Source: a virus (Duplodnaviria; Caudoviricetes). Taken from it: 64,000 nucleotides of DNA. Below the pieces are notes generated by a model that saw nothing but the letters and a program-made list of their open reading frames with translations, had not been told where the DNA came from and made no database searches. A program made the translations under genes and the position numbers. Shown here piece by piece: positions 5,656 through 62,374 of this stretch (the stretch's first letter is position 1; every line of letters begins with the position of its first letter). The stretch is taken from IMG/VR virus record IMGVR_UViG_3300033073_001332, positions 155,554 through 219,553 of that record, one strand, 5' to 3'.

Positions 5656-6564
5656 ATGGCATTAGGAACATATGGTATTGTAAGACCTTCGGATGTATCA
5701 CCAGCAGATGTTGATATCATATTACACTACACACCAAGTAGAGATGTTACGGATAATTTTCTTCTTAAAAAATTAAACTCACAAAGTGTTTTAACACCGT
5801 ATTATCATAATTCAGATACAGGTGGTAATGCAGGTGTTGAAGTTTTAGGTGGATTATACAACTTAAAATTACCTGCTAGTGAATTTAATAAAAAAGGAAT
5901 TTACACATTATACATTAAACCTGCCGAAATTAGAACAACAATTAACGATTGTGGGGTGTTATCGGCATTACCAAATGTTAAAGGTATTATTATCAACTTG
6001 AATGATGTACCATCACAATTTAGAAATAAATTCACAAATCAAGGTCTTGTTGGATTTAGAGTGGAATACTTAAATTCTGATGGTAGTAAAATACCTAATT
6101 TTTATAGAATAGTAACATCATCATTCTTTTGCGAACCAGTAACAACTGAACAAATTAATTCATCACAAAAGACAATAAGATATCGTTATGTTGATGGTGG
6201 AAGTGATTTAGTATTTTGTACGTTATCACCTTCATCCTCACCTACTAACAAACCAACCGCAACTCCATTCATTGGACAACCAAACCAAAAAATCATTGTA
6301 ACAAATACTTTTTTCAATCCAATCACTATTGATATCCAAATGGCTGACTACGATTTAGATACAATTGCAATCGCTCTTTATGGTAATCAAAGTAAGAGTA
6401 TGGAGGACGGAATTTACACTCTTTACGATAGTAATAACAATATCTATAAACAATATAACTTATTTGAGGTTAGAGATAACTTTAACGAGTTACTTTATGA
6501 AGTTAGACAAGACAGAGGTTCTAATATAGACTTCAGTAAAAACTTTACAAATATTATTACTTAA
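5656..6564 (+). CDS. Putative virion structural protein
   Basis: 302-aa ORF preceded by TATTTAT motif at 5639. Confidence 0.55.
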   Translation: MALGTYGIVRPSDVSPADVDIILHYTPSRDVTDNFLLKKLNSQSVLTPYYHNSDTGGNAGVEVLGGLYNLKLPASEFNKKGIYTLYIKPAEIRTTINDCGVLSALPNVKGIIINLNDVPSQFRNKFTNQGLVGFRVEYLNSDGSKIPNFYRIVTSSFFCEPVTTEQINSSQKTIRYRYVDGGSDLVFCTLSPSSSPTNKPTATPFIGQPNQKIIVTNTFFNPITIDIQMADYDLDTIAIALYGNQSKSMEDGIYTLYDSNNNIYKQYNLFEVRDNFNELLYEVRQDRGSNIDFSKNFTNIIT

Positions 6565-33092: not shown

Positions 33093-33695
33093 ATGAGAAA
33101 GAAAAAAGAAAAAATGGAGTCACTAGATAAGAGATATATGTTGTTTATTTTTGGTGATTTCACAGAGATGGAAAATTTTATTGATGAGATTTCATACCAA
33201 CTTATTACGGTAGTATCAAGTCAATTTTTGAAATTCAATTATGGTGAGTTTGGAATGGTTTTACATTTTAGAACCAAAGAGACATTTACTGAATTGAAGG
33301 ACTATATTGACATGTGTTTAGATGGACAAGTGGAGCAATACTTTTTGATGGAAGCAACAGAAAACGTGGACATTAAAATGGACCGAAAATTGAAGAAAGA
33401 TTTTTTGAATATTGATGGAGTAAAAAAAGAAAACAAGAACAAAAAAGTAGATGTAGAAAAATTGAGTGAAGAAAAAGAGAAAAGAATAGGTAATATCATG
33501 GAATTTATTTTACCTTTGTCGGAAGAAAACTTTCAGTTTCCGATGACGTTTAAAAGACCTGAGTCACCTAAACCAACAGTGGACCAAATTTTAGATAAAA
33601 TATCAGAGAAAGGAATAGAGTCATTAACAAAAGAAGAGAAACAAATATTAGACAATTATGGCAAGAGAGAAAATGGAGGAAACCAAATCAACTAA
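33093..33695 (+). CDS. Protein with C-terminal DUF6576-like domain
   Basis: VDQILDKISEKGIESLTKEEKQIL. Confidence 0.6.
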   Translation: MRKKKEKMESLDKRYMLFIFGDFTEMENFIDEISYQLITVVSSQFLKFNYGEFGMVLHFRTKETFTELKDYIDMCLDGQVEQYFLMEATENVDIKMDRKLKKDFLNIDGVKKENKNKKVDVEKLSEEKEKRIGNIMEFILPLSEENFQFPMTFKRPESPKPTVDQILDKISEKGIESLTKEEKQILDNYGKRENGGNQIN

Positions 33696-34473
33696 TCCCC
33701 TTAATCAGGATGAAATTCAAATTTACCTTAAAGACATTCGTAAACTAAAAGTGATGACTCCTGAAAGGGAGAAACTTTTGGCAGAACGAATCTCCTCAAC
33801 GGATTGTACCGACAGAGAAAAAGAAGCAATTCAAAAAGAAATGCTTGAAGGTAATTTACGTTTTGTTATTACGGTGGCAAAACAATATCAAAATCAAGGA
33901 ATTGATTTATCAGACTTAATTGCTGAAGGAAACTACGGTTTAATGAAAGCAATCAAAAACTTTGATTGGAGTAAAAACAATCGATTTATATCATATGCGG
34001 TATGGTGGATTAAACAATCTATTCTACAAACTCTTAACGACAATTCTCGTACAATTCGTCTCCCAGTTAATGTCGTACAAGAGATGCAAAAAGAAAAACG
34101 GGAGAATGAAAAAACAAACAAGGAATTATCTGGTAAATTCGCATCACTACCTCGAATGATTGACCTTGATATGCACATCAACGAAGATGGTGACACTTTA
34201 ATTGACATCATCAAAAATGAGAACGTTGATGCACCTGATGAAATATTTGACACCAAAGATGTGTTGAAACAAAAGATGTTGGAAATCATGTCAGTATTGG
34301 ATGAACGTGAAAAAGTAATTATTGAAGATTACTACGGTATCACAGGTACTCCTCGTACATTAGAAGACATTGGTTCTGATTTTTCTTTAACAAAAGAACG
34401 TGTTCGTCAGATTAAAGAAAAGGCACTTCGTAAACTTCGTAACGAATGTTCAGATTTATTTGAATATTTATGA
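33658..34473 (+). CDS. Sigma-70 family factor, Bacteroidota primary-sigma-like, no region 1.1
   Basis: YLKDI (1.2), NLRFVITVAKQYQNQG, SYAVWWIKQSI (2), TLEDIG...TKERVRQIKEKALRKL (4). Confidence 0.92.
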   Translation: MAREKMEETKSTNPLNQDEIQIYLKDIRKLKVMTPEREKLLAERISSTDCTDREKEAIQKEMLEGNLRFVITVAKQYQNQGIDLSDLIAEGNYGLMKAIKNFDWSKNNRFISYAVWWIKQSILQTLNDNSRTIRLPVNVVQEMQKEKRENEKTNKELSGKFASLPRMIDLDMHINEDGDTLIDIIKNENVDAPDEIFDTKDVLKQKMLEIMSVLDEREKVIIEDYYGITGTPRTLEDIGSDFSLTKERVRQIKEKALRKLRNECSDLFEYL

Positions 34474-34480
34474 TAAAATA

Positions 34481-34512
34481 TTTGGCAGATGTCAGATTTC
34501 GTATTATCTTTG
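34481..34512 (+). promoter_or_regulatory. Bacteroidota-type promoter TTTG-N20-TATCTTTG
   Basis: TTTG 34481-84, TATCTTTG 34505-12. Confidence 0.75.
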
Positions 34513-34519
34513 TATAACA

Positions 34520-34685
34520 AACGATGAGGGTTAAATAATCACTGATGATATCTAAGTGATTGGTTAAGTAGAAGTGATTCAGGGCTGAAGAATCCTGAGT
34601 TGGTAGAAAGATGGAACACCATTAAGATACTAAGGTTCTACCCTACTTAATCAACCCAAATTGTTGGTTGAGGTCTACCCTCACT
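34520..34685 (+). ncRNA. Putative structured small RNA (~160 nt)
   Basis: Nested helices 34525-31/34677-83, 34560-71/34643-54, 34577-83/34594-600, 34602-08/34636-42; no real ORF; consensus promoter upstream. Confidence 0.55.
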
Positions 34686-35024
34686 ATCTTTTCTTATTAC
34701 CGTTTTTGTCATCAGGGTAAAATTATACGGGTCCTCCTCAATTAGTTTTAAAGGTATAAATAGATTATCGTTTTTATATCTTACTATAAAAACATCATTA
34801 TCTGTCAATTCACCCGTAACAATTTTAGTTGTTATTTCATCAATCGCCTTACCAATAAGTAAAGTAATATCTCCCTTTGAAACGTTTCTTTGTTTTTGTC
34901 TTTTTCCTGTGTGGTCATAATCATCTGACCTTAAATCGAAATTTATGAATATTTGAGACTTCATCTGAGTGATGCGTCTTTCAAGTAATAAATGTTTCCT
35001 AATAGATTCTCTTAATAATGACAT
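34647..35024 (-). CDS. Possible BECR/DUF4258-like RNase-fold protein with N-terminal leader
   Basis: DHTGKRQKQRNVSKGDI resembles HxxxRxxxRxI; minus-strand TATTTATA 4 nt before ATG. Confidence 0.55.
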   Translation of the reverse strand: MSLLRESIRKHLLLERRITQMKSQIFINFDLRSDDYDHTGKRQKQRNVSKGDITLLIGKAIDEITTKIVTGELTDNDVFIVRYKNDNLFIPLKLIEEDPYNFTLMTKTVIRKDSEGRPQPTIWVD

Positions 35025-35072
35025 ATTGTATAAATATTGATTAAAACTATTTATTAGTTATAGTTTTATATT

Positions 35073-36257
35073 ATGAAAGATAAATTATTACCCTGGTTTC
35101 TATTATTTTGCGCACTCGGTCTGTCAGGAACCGCAGCCTACTATAGTGTTGTAGGTCTATCTGTTGTGTTTGTTGGAGTGGCATTACCGGTAATTGTCAT
35201 GGGTTCCTTTTTAGAAATATCCAAACTTGCAATTGCGACATACTTACATGATAAGTGGAAAGAAACTTATGGGGTCTTAAAAATATATATGACAATTGCT
35301 TTGGTGACCTTGTCTTTAATAACCTCACTTGGTATCTATGGGTTATTGAGTACAGGGTTTTCTTCTAATATTGCAAAACTTGAAATCGGACAGAAGGAAG
35401 TAAAAAATATTGAAGTAAAAAAACAAAGGTTTGAAGAAATCAAAGGAGAATACCAAAAAGAAAAACAAACATTAGATAAAGACATCTCAAAGTTAAGAGA
35501 TGCGTTATCAAGTAATACCACAACTCAAAGTGTTGATAGACAAACAGGTCAGTTAGTTACAAGAGCAAATAATGCAAACAGAAAGTCATTTGAAACTCAA
35601 TTGACGATGGCAATTGAAAATCGTGATAAGATGTCTTTGAAAATAGATGCGTTGAATGATAGTATCACAAACTTGGACATTGAAATATTAGATAAAGAAT
35701 CTGCTGAAATTTCAGGTAATGAACTTGGAACCATTAAATACATAAGTGAACTTACTGGTTGGGGTGTTAAAAAAACGGCAAACATATTCATTCTTATTTT
35801 GATATTTGTTTTTGACCCTCTTGCAATCACTTTGGTAATTGCAACAAACCAAGCATTCAAAGCGAATAAAAAAGAAGAGGAGACCCCCCAAGTTACCCCA
35901 CAAGTCACCCCCCAAGTTACCCCCCAAGTCGAAGAAATAGTTGATATACCACAGGAAGATGAACCAAAAAATGAAGAAGTTGTTGTTCCTGAAAATTTAT
36001 TGACTTTTGGAGAAAATTTTGAATGGGATTTAAACGGTATTACGGAAGAAGAAGAACCCATAGTTGAAGAGATAATTGAAGAAGAAGAACCTATAGTAGA
36101 AGAAATCGTTGAAGAAGAACCTATTGAAGAGATAATTGAAGAACAACCAATTAAAGAGGAAGAACCCGTTATAGATGAAGAACCTAAACAATTAAGAAGA
36201 TTATCTTATTCAAATCGAAGTGCAAATGGAAATAATGTACGAATTAACAGATTTTAA
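35073..36257 (+). CDS. Multi-pass membrane protein with coiled coil and acidic repeat tail
   Basis: 3 N-terminal TMs, coiled coil, FVFDPLAI TM, TPQV and EEPIVEE repeats. Confidence 0.7.
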   Translation: MKDKLLPWFLLFCALGLSGTAAYYSVVGLSVVFVGVALPVIVMGSFLEISKLAIATYLHDKWKETYGVLKIYMTIALVTLSLITSLGIYGLLSTGFSSNIAKLEIGQKEVKNIEVKKQRFEEIKGEYQKEKQTLDKDISKLRDALSSNTTTQSVDRQTGQLVTRANNANRKSFETQLTMAIENRDKMSLKIDALNDSITNLDIEILDKESAEISGNELGTIKYISELTGWGVKKTANIFILILIFVFDPLAITLVIATNQAFKANKKEEETPQVTPQVTPQVTPQVEEIVDIPQEDEPKNEEVVVPENLLTFGENFEWDLNGITEEEEPIVEEIIEEEEPIVEEIVEEEPIEEIIEEQPIKEEEPVIDEEPKQLRRLSYSNRSANGNNVRINRF

Positions 36258-58438: not shown

Positions 58439-58470
58439 TTTGATAGTCTCAAATTAAATTACTAAATTTG
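58439..58470 (+). promoter_or_regulatory. Bacteroidota-type promoter for the large ncRNA
   Basis: TTTG-N20-TAAATTTG. Confidence 0.65.
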
Positions 58471-58619
58471 TAAAAGATTTGAAACTTATAGGTGATGAAA
58501 GATACTCGGTATTCAAATCACAAACGTTCTTTGAAAAGATTGAAATTAGAACAAAATGTTCAGTTTGAACTTAAAAAAAAGATTAACCCCCTTTTCTTTG
58601 AAGTTTAAATACATAGAGT

Positions 58620-59455
58620 TCTTTGGGCCGTGTATAGTCCATTAAAATAAACTACGAAAGTAGGATAAAGTGAACCCTTAAGTGTGTTGGGTTTGCGTCT
58701 TGTTAATCTTCGGATTAATGAGGTCGAGTACACAAGCGGGATACCATTTTGGCTTTAGTATTGAGGGCAACGCTGTAAAGAAAGAGGCAAAATGAAAGGG
58801 CGGTGTGGGTCGTCCGATTGAGGTGGGAACACCAATAGGAATAACCCGTAGGATTATTGCAAGAACTGAGGTCATCCAACTTCAATATTGCGTGTTCCAA
58901 TATGATAGGTTACTTAAAACCAAGTGGAAGTACCACAAGGTAAGAAGGAGAACGAGTGGTGTCGCTACCTTCCCTTACGGTGGTTTACCAAAACCCTGTA
59001 ATGAAGTAGTCTAAAAATATGGAAATGGGGACATTTCAAGGAGTAGTTGAGTATTCCGTTGTTCAAAAGATAACGGAGCCCGTGACGGACCACTACTTCT
59101 AAAATCCACGACACAAAAACTTTATTTTACATTTCAGAAGTAAAATTCATGATATACTATAAAGCAAAAGTGTCCGTCAGGTAATAGTGAAAGGTGACTA
59201 CATAGTAATGAGCCGTTCATTGCATCGATTAGACCGCAAGTTTAACGATATTCTTACCAAACACCTCTAGTCCCGCAAGGACTAACTGGGAAGGCATTCT
59301 CGGAGAGAGTCAAGTAATAAGAGAGTAACTATTATCTCAAGGAGTGGTACACCTAAAAGACCGTCACTGAGGAATACTTCTCAAAAGGAAGTGGATACGA
59401 AGGGAAACAATAATCCTTCAAAAGATACCTCACTAAAAACTGTAATCTCAGGTTT
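58620..59455 (+). ncRNA. Large structured ncRNA, GOLLD-like (~830 nt)
   Basis: No credible ORF, higher GC, many GNRA/UUCG/GCAA hairpins, upstream promoter, downstream terminator, near tRNAs; family assignment unverified. Confidence 0.65.
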
Positions 59456-59490
59456 TTATTTTTTATGGAGCGACCGGCAAAAAAATATTG

Positions 59491-59522
59491 ATGGATAAGA
59501 TTTTTTTCTTATCCATTTTTTT
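59491..59522 (+). terminator. Terminator after the ncRNA
   Basis: ATGGATAAGA-loop-TCTTATCCAT followed by T-run. Confidence 0.65.
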
Positions 59523-59553
59523 GTGCTTTAAATTTTTTTCATATCTTTGTGGT

Positions 59554-59991
59554 ATGGGAAACGCAAACAAACAAGGATACGTAATAAAGGATAAAGAAAT
59601 AAAATCTATCAAGAAGTTGGTGAAAGATATGACTATCATCACTAATGGTAGACCAGATGGTTGGAGAGACCACCGCGGAATGCTTTTGGGCGCTAAAATT
59701 AAAATTACATCTGTTAGAAAATACCAAAACAGATGGTCTTGGAATGGTTACAACGAATTTTGTTATGAGGTAGACATCGAAGTTGATATTACTGAGTCAG
59801 ATTACATGGGGTATTCTGGTTCAAAATATAGTGTAAGATACGATTTAGGTAGAGGTATTAGAAATACAAATAACTACTACCGTTCTTCTTATGAAAAATA
59901 TGTAACAGATGAATTAAAATATTTTGGAATCGATACTCGTTTTTACAGCGCACTTGTGACTATTTCAAAAATTAAATACAAATACCAATAA
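59554..59991 (+). CDS. Hypothetical protein
   Basis: ATG 59554 lies 4 nt after TATCTTTG. Confidence 0.6.
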   Translation: MGNANKQGYVIKDKEIKSIKKLVKDMTIITNGRPDGWRDHRGMLLGAKIKITSVRKYQNRWSWNGYNEFCYEVDIEVDITESDYMGYSGSKYSVRYDLGRGIRNTNNYYRSSYEKYVTDELKYFGIDTRFYSALVTISKIKYKYQ

Positions 59992-60044
59992 TTTATTTGT
60001 TTTATTCAAAATAGTTTTTTATCTTTGTAGAAATAATAAACGAC

Positions 60045-60311
60045 ATGGCAACAGTAAAAAGTATATTAGTAGTTCACCCAACACACGGTCAGTTAATTTC
60101 TGAAACTTTCTTGGATGAACTACAACACCAAATGTTCTTAAAAATGTTGCACACGGCAGTTGCAATGGGTATTGATTTTACCACATACAACGGCAAAGAC
60201 TTTTTCATTCACATCCCAAGTGGAATGTTAAAGGAGTGTTTGATTGTAGGTCAAGCACAAGAAGTTTCGATGGGTGACGTAGTGGTTGCCAAGTCCAAAC
60301 TTGAAATGTAG
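60045..60311 (+). CDS. Hypothetical protein
   Basis: 88 aa; TTTG-N20-TATCTTTG upstream. Confidence 0.6.
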   Translation: MATVKSILVVHPTHGQLISETFLDELQHQMFLKMLHTAVAMGIDFTTYNGKDFFIHIPSGMLKECLIVGQAQEVSMGDVVVAKSKLEM

Positions 60312-60373
60312 TTTCCTTGTTCTTAAAACAAGGTGGTGGAGAAGTTGACATTATTCAATGTCGGCCCAAAATT

Positions 60374-60400
60374 AAGGTGAAGGAGACTTCACCTTTTTTT
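60374..60400 (+). terminator. Rho-independent terminator
   Basis: AAGGTGAAG-gaga-CTTCACCTT plus T-run. Confidence 0.8.
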
Positions 60401-60421
60401 ATTTGTATGATATTTATTGAT

Positions 60422-60793
60422 ATGAATATAGAATCAATAATTAGAAGAGTATTAGTTGAGGAATTCTTAAATCAAAACGAATTCTTATATGAAGATATAT
60501 ACGGTTCGGTAGAAGAAGTAAATTTACTTCAAGAGGCTGAATACCAGGGAAGAAAAGTTCAACTTGGTAAAATCATGCAAGGAGACATCAAGAAGTTTAA
60601 AGTTTATGTTAAAAACGACAAAGGAAAAGTTGTTAAAGTAAACTTTGGTTTTGGTGGAAAATCAGCAAAAGGTAAAAGAATGGTTATTAAAAAGAATAAC
60701 CCTGAAAGAAGACGTTCATTTAGAGCAAGACACAATTGCGATAATCCTGGCCCAAGATGGAAACCAAGATATTGGGCATGTAGAACATGGTAA
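60422..60793 (+). CDS. Basic protein (DUF5754-like) with acidic N-terminal leader
   Basis: KKFKVYV...VNFG...RRRSFRARH; start after TATTTAT 60411. Confidence 0.6.
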   Translation: MNIESIIRRVLVEEFLNQNEFLYEDIYGSVEEVNLLQEAEYQGRKVQLGKIMQGDIKKFKVYVKNDKGKVVKVNFGFGGKSAKGKRMVIKKNNPERRRSFRARHNCDNPGPRWKPRYWACRTW

Positions 60794-60797
60794 GATT

Positions 60798-61097
60798 ATG
60801 AGCAAAATTATTATAACAGAAAAACAACTTGAAGAAGTTGTGAAAATGATGAAAGAGAACAAAGAAGAGGGTTCTTACATGGCAAAACAACAACTTTTTA
60901 CCATCGCAACTTTAGCATATAAAATGTGGGAGTTAATGGAAGAAGGTGAACAACTTGAAGATTGGATGGAATCAAAAATCGCACAAGCAGACCAAATGGT
61001 TACTGCTGTTGTGAAATCATATATGTATGATGAAGTGGAAAACAAAATCAAAGGGAGTCATGAATTTGACCCAAATGATTTAATCATAGGGATGTAA
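60798..61097 (+). CDS. Hypothetical protein with leader motif
   Basis: MSKIIITEKQLEEVVK; likely start 60798. Confidence 0.6.
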   Translation: MSKIIITEKQLEEVVKMMKENKEEGSYMAKQQLFTIATLAYKMWELMEEGEQLEDWMESKIAQADQMVTAVVKSYMYDEVENKIKGSHEFDPNDLIIGM

Positions 61098-61189
61098 TAT
61101 ATTATCTTTTTTTTGAAACCCTCCTTTTTTTAATTGGGGGGTTTGTTTTTTAATATAAGTTTCATATATTTGTAAAAAGAAACAAGACA

Positions 61190-61366
61190 ATGTACGTTAT
61201 CATCAAACATGTTAAAACACAAGACGAAAGAACATTACCTGTGATTATGTTAGATACACAAGGTGAGGTTTGGGAATTCGACAACAAAGATAAGGCACAA
61301 GAAATGGCTAACATCTTCAACACTAATACCGATTCAGGTCACAAATACGAAGTAAAACAGGTTTAA
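61190..61366 (+). CDS. 58-aa hypothetical protein
   Basis: Manual translation; TTTG-N19-TATATTTG upstream. Confidence 0.55.
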   Translation: MYVIIKHVKTQDERTLPVIMLDTQGEVWEFDNKDKAQEMANIFNTNTDSGHKYEVKQV

Positions 61367-61373
61367 TTAATAT

Positions 61374-61447
61374 GCGCCCGTAGCTCAGCTGGATAGAGCA
61401 ACTGCCTTCTAAGCAGTAGGTCTCAGGTTCGAATCCTGACGGGCGTA
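61374..61447 (+). tRNA. tRNA-Arg(UCU)
   Basis: Full cloverleaf; anticodon loop CT-TCT-AA; TTCGAAT T-loop. Confidence 0.93.
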
Positions 61448-61465
61448 CTAACTAACAAAAAAATC

Positions 61466-61591
61466 ATGGAAGACATTTTTGAACAACAACACTACGAGTA
61501 TATTAACTCAGAAGATTTTTTTCAGTTTATGAAAGAAATGTTTGAATATGAAGAAAAAGAAGCTTTATCTTCTGAAGAAAATGAATTATAA
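61466..61591 (+). CDS. 41-aa acidic peptide
   Basis: Manual translation MEDIFEQQHYEY... Confidence 0.4.
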   Translation: MEDIFEQQHYEYINSEDFFQFMKEMFEYEEKEALSSEENEL

Positions 61592-61649
61592 TTGAAATAG
61601 GTTAGGTTAATTGATGATGTTTTTTGGGTAACCTAAAAACGAAAGATTA

Positions 61650-61719
61650 AGTCGTATAGCTCAGTTGGTAGAGCAATCCATTTATGGACGTGTCACAGGT
61701 TTGAATCCCGTTACGGCTT
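61650..61719 (+). pseudogene. Degenerate tRNA-like element
   Basis: Acceptor AGTCGTA/TACGGCT and canonical D-arm, but shortened anticodon arm (TCCA-TTTA-TGGA) and TTTGAAT T-loop. Confidence 0.65.
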
Positions 61720-61728
61720 AACAAAATT

Positions 61729-61761
61729 AAAAAAGGTGTTGGTAACAACACCTTTTTTTTT
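61729..61761. terminator. Bidirectional terminator
   Basis: A6-GGTGTTG-gtaa-CAACACC-T9. Confidence 0.8.
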
Positions 61762-61807
61762 ATTGATATATTTATTATAAAATAATAAAAACAAAAAACA
61801 CAAAATT

Positions 61808-62374
61808 ATGAAGTTTTTAATTTCGGAAGACGAGAAAAGTAGAATTTTGGAAATGCACCAAAATGCTACATCAAAACAATATTTAACAGAGAACGCTGAC
61901 GGCGGATGGATGGGTACCGCACTTAAGGCTATAGAAGCAATGTTTGGAGGTCAAGCAATTGATTCTAAATTTGGTGCAAATGCAACTTACACCACACAGA
62001 ATACATATGCGGCTTACGACTCAAGAGTGAACGGAAAACAATATGTTTGGATTATACCAAAAGGAACTACATGGTCGGTTTCACCTAGTTTAACTTTATT
62101 GACTGCACCTGTTAAAAGAATTAATTATTCGTCTTTAGCTTCTTTCGGGAATGATGAGGCGATTGCTAAAAAATTAAATGATGGAACATTTTTGGCGACT
62201 TTAGCGGCAGGAACCGCAAAAGATTCTACAGGAAAGGTTATTCCTGTTGCTGATGATAAATTAGCAGTAACTAAAGAAACTACTAATCAAGTGGCTAATA
62301 CAAGTGGATTGGTTTCAAGTATTTTATACCCATCTTATTGGAATCAAATGACAGATAAATTTAGAACTTTATAA
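61808..62374 (+). CDS. Hypothetical protein with leader motif
   Basis: MKFLISEDEKSRILEMH...YLTE; TATTTAT 61769. Confidence 0.6.
   Translation: MKFLISEDEKSRILEMHQNATSKQYLTENADGGWMGTALKAIEAMFGGQAIDSKFGANATYTTQNTYAAYDSRVNGKQYVWIIPKGTTWSVSPSLTLLTAPVKRINYSSLASFGNDEAIAKKLNDGTFLATLAAGTAKDSTGKVIPVADDKLAVTKETTNQVANTSGLVSSILYPSYWNQMTDKFRTL

Follow-up and report, generated by a model that had tools for sequence, protein, structure and literature searches.

Several described systems share features with the locus analyzed here. In toxin-antitoxin (TA) modules of type III, namely ToxIN, CptIN, TenpIN and AvcID, found on mobile elements and in phages, a protein effector, usually an endoribonuclease, is accompanied by a structured RNA with repeated units that neutralizes it by binding. 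That RNA is a tandem-repeat array, lies upstream of the toxin gene on the same strand, and is processed by the toxin. Another arrangement is seen in type I systems with overlapping 3′ ends, such as TxpA/RatA and BsrG/SR4 of Bacillus prophages, and in OOP of phage lambda, where a convergent small RNA, under a promoter of its own, has a 3′ end that meets the 3′ end of a gene in a phage or prophage; the type I toxins are small membrane peptides, and the overlaps extend from tens to more than 100 nt, without a conserved trans-acting loop motif. In the sponge RNAs CsrB and RsmZ, several hairpins display the same short single-stranded motif, GGA, on stems that are free to vary. On the protein side, T4 RegB is a small phage RNase with a RelE/YoeB-like core, an extra N-terminal helix, and two catalytic histidines at positions 48 and 68 (PMC3014915); regB has an early host-type promoter, and a possible anti-RegB partner has been a matter of speculation in a review of T4 (PMC3014915). 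DUF4258, which like RelE and ParE belongs to the BECR fold (10.64898/2026.08.28.747851; PMC11980606), has cellular members whose partners are protein antitoxins, MqsA-like proteins among them, and not RNAs (PMC11980606).

The locus described here lies in a window of 64,000 nucleotides, the whole stretch of DNA that was analyzed, which makes up the final 64 kb of an IMG/VR virus record of 219.5 kb with an estimated completeness of 75%. We know of no RNA partner of RegB and of no BECR/RelE-fold RNase under RNA control, and to our knowledge almost nothing has been established about regulatory RNAs in Bacteroidota phages. The window is AT-rich and contains a GOLLD RNA and tRNA genes. Within the locus, a sigma-70-family gene and a candidate RNA on the plus strand are followed by a 125-aa ORF on the minus strand, a membrane-protein gene on the plus strand, and an amidase gene (Table 1). 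The sigma gene is kept at this position inside the jumbo-phage clade but not elsewhere, as judged from a synteny table, and no relative of the locus or of the ORF was present in the phage GenBank collection.

Table 1. Features of the sRNA locus, in window coordinates
Feature	Coordinates	Strand	Observations
Phage sigma-70-family factor gene	33658–34473	+	Pfam Sigma70_r2, r4, r1_2; immediately upstream of the sRNA; context only
Bacteroidota-type sRNA promoter	34481–34512	+	−33 TTTG at 34481–34484, 20-nt spacer, −7 TATCTTTG at 34505–34512
Structured sRNA, type A	34516–34672	+	Span of the covariance-model match, 167 bits
5′ hairpin H1 (AAUCACU/AGUGAUU)	34537–34561	+	Changes on both sides in 3 of 6 pairs; variable, absent in some relatives (L017)
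Long helix P1	34560–34654 (34560–34571 with 34643–34654)	+	Encloses P2 and P3; 3′ strand covers the ORF stop codon, 34647–34649
Hairpin P2	34576–34601	+	Loop of (G)AARMA type; changes on both sides in 4 of 8 pairs
Hairpin P3	34602–34642	+	Signature loop GAUGGAAsACsAUUNAGAUAC; changes on both sides in 4 of 7 stem pairs, loop invariant
Terminator-like hairpin and T-rich run, possible sRNA 3′ end	34669–34693 (hairpin 34669–34683)	+	Inside the ORF coding sequence; not conserved in relatives
Putative BECR/RelE-like endoribonuclease, 125 aa	34647–35024	−	Family alignment, AF2 model, fold matches
TATTTATA motif	35029–35036	−	4 nt upstream of the ORF's ATG; phage-type element close to gene starts
Membrane-protein gene	35073–36257	+	Beyond the 125-aa ORF; followed by the amidase gene

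A preliminary description of this DNA had proposed a consensus host-type promoter, TTTG-N20-TATCTTTG, that drives no ORF, and both parts of the proposal hold. The promoter is present and is kept in related phages, appearing as TTTGG..ATATCTTTG in the alignment of L002–L009 and L017, and nearly all loci selected through the ORF carry a TAnnTTTG box about 125 nt from the ORF stop. The only reading frame behind it is a four-codon mini-ORF (ATG AGG GTT AAA TAA, 34525–34539), which is not conserved and contains a deletion in L005. Across the whole window the promoter pattern is not enriched, with 8 copies found and 5 expected; some of the further copies are situated close to the GOLLD and tRNA genes. 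The 5′ end of the sRNA is probably at about 34518–34520, and its 3′ end may fall at about 34690.

Downstream of this promoter is a genuine structured non-coding RNA of about 140–170 nt on the plus strand, in agreement with the multi-helix RNA of about 160 nt that had been proposed, as evidenced by covariation, fold energy, and the conserved promoter. In the RNAfold calculation, a 183-nt stretch reaches −50.8 kcal/mol (z = −2.9), and 1 of 200 shuffled sequences folds as well. Comparison of 16 related viral loci fetched through the ORF gave DNA identities for promoter and RNA of 81–86% where the ORF proteins are 65–70% identical, and of 76–78% where these are only about 30% identical. The consensus fold comprises five helices, namely H1, P1 enclosing P2 and P3, and a short inner helix, and compensatory changes occur in 11 of its 34 predicted pairs. 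When the alignment was built with the model, 96.7% of cells were paired and 12 pairs had changed on both sides, values reached by none of 500 shuffles, and slid-partner controls paired in only 28–47%. Frequent conserved G-U pairs, which the opposite strand would turn into C-A, establish the plus strand in combination with the promoter. In relatives, canonical plus-strand terminators are found, their U-run abutting the ORF stop.

The individual helices differ in the kind of evidence that they display. The long 12-bp helix of the preliminary description is present as P1, with 11 Watson-Crick pairs and one G-U pair; it is nearly invariant and therefore conserved in sequence with little covariation, so that covariation does not prove it. 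Of the three inner hairpins that had been described, two (P2 and P3) do reside inside the long helix, but the third is H1, located on the 5′ side of the helix and absent from some relatives, such as L017. P2 is the counterpart of the middle hairpin, H2, in a common three-hairpin form of the RNA, where this hairpin also covaries, and the P3 loop contains the motif AUUAAGAUAC at 34621–34630. A closing helix (GGGUU/AACCC) that had also been suggested shows no variation, and the conserved C-terminal IWV of the ORF is encoded by its 3′ strand, hence this helix is unsupported. The sequence AATCACT (34537–34543) can indeed pair with either of two copies of AGTGATT (34555–34561 and 34573–34579), as had been noted in favor of alternative folds, but the alternative pairing is lost in several relatives.

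The position of the RNA relative to the ORF raises the question of whether its conservation might reflect something other than an RNA function, such as the minus-strand 3′ UTR or terminator of the ORF, or a small peptide gene. Two observations are in line with such a reading, namely the overlap between the 3′ portion of the element and the end of the ORF, and the coding of IWV by the AACCCAAAU stretch, which accounts for the conservation of that stretch. However, many of the conserved G-U pairs turn into C-A on the opposite strand, the promoter and the U-run terminators sit on the plus strand, and the deletion in L005 argues against a peptide, so that a non-functional RNA appears highly improbable. 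The antisense overlap itself had been put at about 37 nt, and a length of about 37–45 nt results only if the RNA runs to the non-conserved hairpin near its possible 3′ end; the conserved core overlaps the ORF by 8 nt.

Comparison with catalogued RNAs was made at several levels. At gathering scores, Rfam 15 (4227 families) identified only the GOLLD RNA and tRNAs, elsewhere in the window, and the cmscan run that had been called for, with the RNA region at E ≤ 10, returned only chance snoRNA rows. Six relatives covering both RNA types (the second, type B, is described below) gave no match to Rfam 15 at E ≤ 1, and L011 gave none that is credible. The RNA is thus a real, previously uncatalogued small RNA of freshwater Bacteroidota phages, and its family is new to Rfam 15. 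Three more specific interpretations were set aside. A hammerhead is contradicted by the CUGAUGA of the H1 loop, which is not conserved; on inspection, mimicry of a tRNA anticodon loop or T-loop by UUNAGAU is disfavored by the lack of a flanking stem and a misfit at key positions; and pairing of the loop motif with the conserved 5′ coding region of the ORF amounts to only about 5 nt and is not conserved, likewise on inspection.

Pattern scans followed by covariance-model searches of viral and metagenome contigs recovered many further copies of the RNA, mostly from freshwater. The core common to the family consists of P2 and P3, within which the loop of P3, GAUGGAAGACGAUUNAGAUAC, is what remains invariant. 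The commonest form is an RNA of about 115 nt with three hairpins, H1, H2 and H3, whose loops are GGGAAACGAUUNAGAUACAA, ACGAAAAC and AGAAACGAUUNAGAUACUAA, respectively, and of which the last doubles as a terminator; in the stems of H2 and H3 combined, 14 of 17 pairs have changed on both sides. Two-hairpin forms with two copies of the motif also exist. Overall, the invariant loop motif, (A)ACGAUUNAGAUAC, occurs in one to three copies per RNA, with one in the window RNA and two or three in most relatives, and the window RNA is a derived form that combines a single motif copy with the extra P1 helix.

A loop-pattern scan of 185,579 prokaryote genomes produced 73 matches and no sign of a cellular copy, a result that is not proof since the exact 17-base pattern was needed; a single weak model match among the 73 (L156, 26.5 bits) comes from a Flavobacteriaceae MAG. 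Most of the 60 viral matches to the pattern TTAAGTAGAAGT..ATGGAA are due to chance, for example L057 and L070. Enrichment of ATTNAGATAC elsewhere in the phage was too weak to use: 6 copies are present in the window with 1.1 expected, and 9 in the whole 219-kb record with 4.1 ± 2.0 expected.

Converging on the RNA is the 125-aa ORF, in which the preliminary description had noticed an HxxxRxxxR motif. This motif is present as H38-x3-R42-x3-R46 and is conserved in the family, where the conserved residues are E15, H38, R42, R46, T108 and R111; the family also displays a strikingly invariant N-terminal helix (LLRESIRKHLLLE / LLRESIRKHLLLEK). Its members are hydrophilic proteins of 125–151 aa with a predicted alpha/beta RNase-type fold. 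The window protein matched no Pfam family at E ≤ 1, and PHROGs returned nothing useful. A profile search of 1.84 billion representatives yielded 137 relatives, nearly all of 120–150 aa; in the Atlas, every one of the clusters with the highest similarity is viral, and the neighbors include a DUF4258 cluster, likewise viral.

A structural model was obtained with AF2 from an alignment of 88 sequences (pLDDT 86.4; a first model from 13 sequences had reached 63). Helices are predicted at residues 2–12, 39–46 and 50–69, with a strand at 28–33, followed by a four-stranded sheet. The comparison with BECR/RelE folds that had been recommended thus returns a compact alpha/beta architecture, with helices on a four-stranded antiparallel sheet, and a moderate match with Z below 8. 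In Foldseek the best rows are toxins of the RelE superfamily, at E values of 0.04–0.5 that lie below Foldseek significance. VIA-align, run against 48,161 chains, gave Z scores of 4–6, all below 8, to more than 20 chains over 68–92 aligned residues, and the chains matched include RelE, ParE, HigB, YoeB, BrnT, colicin E5/D, CdiA-CT and T4 RegB; for RelE, ParE, HigB, BrnT, colicin E5, CdiA-CT and RegB, Z reaches 5–6. In addition, Pfam DUF4258 (PF14076) is matched by 4 of the 88 relatives, with a best E of 1.8e-4. Because these three lines agree, though each is weak, the ORF product likely has a BECR/RelE-type RNase fold. It shares with DUF4258/Ntox49 and RelE/ParE both this predicted fold and the His-x3-Arg motif, but falls below every Pfam threshold; the family is therefore a distant relative of DUF4258 and not a member by Pfam's rule.

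Among the matched proteins, T4 RegB invites particular comparison, as it is a small phage RNase whose additional first helix and RelE/YoeB-like core have counterparts in the predicted fold. RegB was the top Foldseek match of the first, 13-sequence model (E 0.12), and VIA-align scored it at Z 5.1 over 92 residues, but no sequence similarity to RegB was detected by tblastn against 50,697 phage records or by phmmer against PDB sequences. The two differ in that RegB has a pair of catalytic histidines, whereas the present family has one invariant histidine (H38).

They also differ in promoter, the ORF being preceded not by an early host-type promoter like that of regB but by the phage-type TATTTATA box, which is present on the minus strand as had been reported. 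This element may serve as a promoter or mark a leaderless start. Of the 135 copies of TATTTAT in the record as a whole, 46 are placed 4–15 nt upstream of the first ATG in ORFs of 60 aa or more, against 1–11% of the copies for ten control heptamers, and the TATTTAT motif also precedes ORF homologues in unrelated phages. With host-type −33/−7 elements for the RNA and TATTTATA for the ORF, the two genes appear to be read by different promoter classes. Nothing supports the earlier suggestion that the putative RNase is late or packaged; the ORF carries the start-proximal TATTTAT motif of the phage.

The association between RNA and ORF was assessed at loci found through the protein alone, with a search based on a 15-row alignment, among 46 distinct ORF proteins that had enough flanking DNA. 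A convergent, promoter-driven sRNA gene is located at the stop codon of 43 of these 46 homologues. In 37 it is of the type A-motif kind, with (A)ACGAUUNAGAUAC loops, and in six it is the type B RNA, a different conserved structure marked by a 5′ domain resembling a pseudoknot, by repeats of RUGAAA and by a strong terminator; three have no sRNA. ORFs without an sRNA occur at L393, L396–398 and L316, and L315 has yet another RNA. Conversely, when loci were selected through the RNA, the ORF was convergent in about 42 of 58, including clades that lack the sigma and membrane-gene synteny. The linkage is likewise kept in clades without other common synteny and in distant representatives from metagenome assemblies. 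The prediction that RNA and ORF would co-occur in relatives is therefore borne out across very divergent phages, in roughly nine cases of ten, but co-occurrence is not obligatory. RNA and ORF are genetically coupled, and the coupling is tight but not absolute.

What this coupling serves can be approached by analogy with type III modules, whose mode of action, neutralization of a protein by a bound RNA, is the one proposed here. We tentatively suggest, as the explanation that we prefer, that the RNA and the putative RNase could be functionally paired, with the RNA restraining the RNase mainly as a loop decoy. Host RNA polymerase would make the RNA abundantly from the start of infection, and its loops would bind the RNase by posing as substrates or serving as decoys, much as a type III antitoxin or a sponge of the CsrB kind does. 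Head-on transcription and the short 3′ overlap would add repression of the RNase gene in cis. The RNase, expressed from the phage-specific TATTTATA element, would become active only once it outruns the RNA, or once host-type transcription is shut off. Invariant loops on covarying stems, in one to three copies, do look like a binding surface of the design used by protein-sequestering RNAs; as in CsrB and RsmZ, several hairpins present the same single-stranded motif on variable stems, but here the motif spans 13–15 nt instead of GGA, the RNA is encoded by a phage, and the copies number only one to three. ORFs whose products have the same invariant N-terminal helix are also found paired with the unrelated type B RNA, and so one specific RNA-protein interface cannot explain all loci.

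The geometry of the locus offers another, somewhat unlikely explanation, in which the RNA acts solely in cis through antisense pairing or transcription interference. The strong host-type promoter would fire head-on into the ORF, the RNA would pair with read-through ORF transcripts, and the ORF would stay silent until host-type transcription is off; it would then be the position of the RNA that matters, not its sequence. In every linked locus with an ORF, the RNA gene is convergent with the ORF and downstream of it, and this convergent position at the stop codon is the one feature common to the type A, type B and L315 RNAs. Most loci are without a terminator on the ORF strand, from which it follows that the ORF transcript must run antisense through the sRNA gene. 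A minimal, two-hairpin form of the RNA (P2 and P3) is again convergent on a phage gene, at no fewer than eight loci: a capsid-like gene of 621 aa, beside a secreted nuclease-like gene. However, the conserved RNA core ranges from an overlap of 19–22 nt with the ORF coding sequence to a gap of 14 nt, so that its overlap with the coding sequence is minimal; cis interference needs neither an invariant loop motif nor covarying stems; and the RNA is retained in L230 and L238 although it is co-directional with its neighbors there. The convergent layout with a separate promoter is otherwise that of the 3′-overlapping type I modules and lambda OOP, from which the locus is distinguished by its hydrophilic product with a predicted alpha/beta RNase-type fold, by the shorter overlap of its conserved core, and by the conserved loop motif.

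The preliminary description had named occurrence of the RNA without the ORF as evidence against a pairing of the two, and such occurrences are confined to a minority of loci. They comprise L230 and L238, where the sigma gene, the RNA and the membrane gene are kept while the ORF is absent, and the minimal form beside the capsid-like gene; in L236 the RNA is found in another context. The RNA-only records are fragments; no ORF was found in the larger records behind the RNA-only loci L082, L083, L085 and L091, which are only 16–37% complete. The RNA-only cases favor, to a degree, an sRNA that acts independently and in trans, its loops being directed at a conserved factor of the host (an RNA-binding protein, or else an mRNA or tRNA reached by base pairing), with adjacency to the ORF reflecting inherited gene order and a shared terminator. 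A motif kept unchanged across ORFs that have drifted to about 30% identity is explained at least equally well by a conserved host partner. The form of the RNA also tracks the ORF clade in a quick tree, as simple co-inheritance predicts, but co-inheritance and co-evolution would both predict this pattern. On the other hand, the adjacency survives in backgrounds without other common synteny, and it survives replacement of one RNA type by another at the same spot, which would be difficult to account for if the pair were not under selection. An sRNA acting independently of the ORF is regarded as unlikely.

Conceivably, the RNA could instead be a dedicated substrate or cofactor of the RNase, its loop being cut (for example at NAG) to mature the sRNA, or RNA and protein forming a ribonucleoprotein that acts on host RNA. 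We consider this quite improbable: type B RNAs are without the motif, and no BECR enzyme is known to us to use an RNA cofactor. The identical loops that recur in the RNA, the BECR type of the putative RNase and the close linkage would nonetheless suit such an arrangement, as would the recognition of triplets by RelE, YoeB and RegB, which make their cut between nucleotides two and three (PMC3014915).

Returning to the decoy model, the module would work most like a type III system but fails the defining gene layout of that family. Its RNA is convergent and separately promoted, with one to three hairpin loops and no tandem array, and its protein is predicted to be BECR/RelE-like; the fold searches list RelE, ParE, BrnT, colicin E5 and RegB and no ToxN, an absence from the list that does not amount to exclusion. 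It could be, as a more speculative and rather doubtful extension, that the locus represents a new class of RNA-protein toxin/antitoxin-like module in lytic Bacteroidota phages, in which repeated (A)ACGAUUNAGAUAC loops of a host-promoter-driven sRNA, posing as substrates, bind and neutralize an endoribonuclease of RegB/RelE fold, and in which the RNA acts as a timer, with the RNase set free when host-type transcription ends.

The module is compact and abundant, being carried by dozens of distinct freshwater phage lineages with an RNA that has no match in Rfam 15, and its clearly mutable parts, namely a consensus promoter, a 13-nt loop motif and a single invariant histidine, make the question of its function directly testable. 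Whichever function applies, the type A family and its type B counterpart merit covariance models in public libraries. If the RNA targets a host factor, it would constitute a new phage sRNA family, one whose seed is defined. If it neutralizes the RNase, a BECR toxin would for the first time have an RNA as its inhibitor, and the long-standing question about an "anti-RegB" partner would be answered by an RNA; the logic of RNA antitoxins would then extend to the largest toxin superfamily, and these phages would gain a timing mechanism for an mRNA-degrading enzyme.

The slot behind homologues of the ORF, the 125-aa BECR/RelE-like putative endoribonuclease gene, is occupied in other loci by a second, uncatalogued family of structured sRNA, here called type B, which is convergent with the ORF exactly as the type A RNA is in the window. 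This RNA proceeds from GGGUUGAACCGAG..CUCGG through GGUGAAAnUCCUC, a covarying hairpin and GAUGAAAC to a strong terminator; compensatory changes are present in 10 of its 30 pairs, and it has no match in Rfam. Behind a distant ORF homologue, P0074, the same slot holds a third sRNA candidate with a promoter and a terminator (L315:540-640, minus strand), unrelated to the other two. Only one ORF clade (L393, L396-L398) is devoid of an sRNA; in its place, the gene convergent with the ORF encodes a small acidic protein. L100 has a similar protein of 77 aa at another place (6331-6564).

Coordinates of features in the window and in related viral and metagenome loci (L numbers)
Feature	Location	Strand	Remark
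Type B RNA	L011:6448-6585	-	behind ORF homologue
Type B RNA	L012-L014		behind ORF homologues
Type B RNA	L311:630-762	-	behind ORF homologue
Type B RNA	L312:1912-2050	-	behind ORF homologue
Type B RNA	L336:1445-1578	-	behind ORF homologue
Small acidic protein gene	L393, L396-L398, about 10-20 nt past ORF stop	opposite to ORF	protein ends ..EAVSKALRVLGAN
Minimal P2+P3 RNA	L080:3459-3532	+	
Minimal P2+P3 RNA	L082:579-655	-	
Minimal P2+P3 RNA	L083, L086, L106, L111, L205, L245		
Further ATTNAGATAC copies	window 5810(+), 6353(+), 9234(-), 24989(+), 51168(+)		mostly within + strand coding regions
200-aa ORF	window 33093-33695	+	just upstream of sigma gene, overlaps its start
TATTTAT(A)	window 35029-36	-	example copy
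TATTTAT(A)	window 13540, 18293, 19853		example copies

The type A RNA itself varies in extent. A minimal form, reduced to the inner hairpins P2 and P3, has no ORF homologue nearby; relative to it, a capsid-like 621-aa gene is convergent, and the gene of a 191-aa secreted protein bearing a nuclease-like motif (DKGHLAPAADF..NRGxW) is divergent. In some relatives, among them L343 (the L028 contig) and L334, the promoter immediately ahead of the type A RNA is missing, and the RNA is preceded by a conserved, GC-richer segment of ~90 nt with a TAAATTTG box in front of it. This arrangement points to a longer RNA that has an additional 5′ domain. An RNA at L200:2394-2534 (minus strand) carries the AUGGAACACGAUUUAGAUACAACGAUU loop element in two neighboring copies, and the ORF homologue there is 1.8 kb away rather than abutting. 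The loop motif ATTNAGATAC also recurs elsewhere in the window (6 copies in all versus 1.1 expected), whereas the whole genome has only 9 versus 4.1 expected. Four of the five further window copies extend to GATACAA; all five could be target sites or chance occurrences.

The 200-aa ORF preceding the phage sigma-70-family gene matches DUF6576 in its C-terminal part (E 3.4e-11).

In the window phage, the motif TATTTAT(A) is genuinely start-proximal: of its 135 copies in the whole record, 46 precede the first ATG of a long ORF by 4-15 nt, compared with 1-11% for control heptamers, and the distance to the ATG has one peak at 4-5 nt and another at 12-14 nt. The motif is probably a phage-specific promoter yielding leaderless or very short-leader mRNAs, possibly recognized by the phage sigma factor. 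As for host-type promoters (TTTG-N18-22-TAnnTTTG), five of the eight matches in the window are grouped at 58439-61973, around the GOLLD RNA and tRNA genes, and this phage seems largely to keep such promoters for RNA genes.
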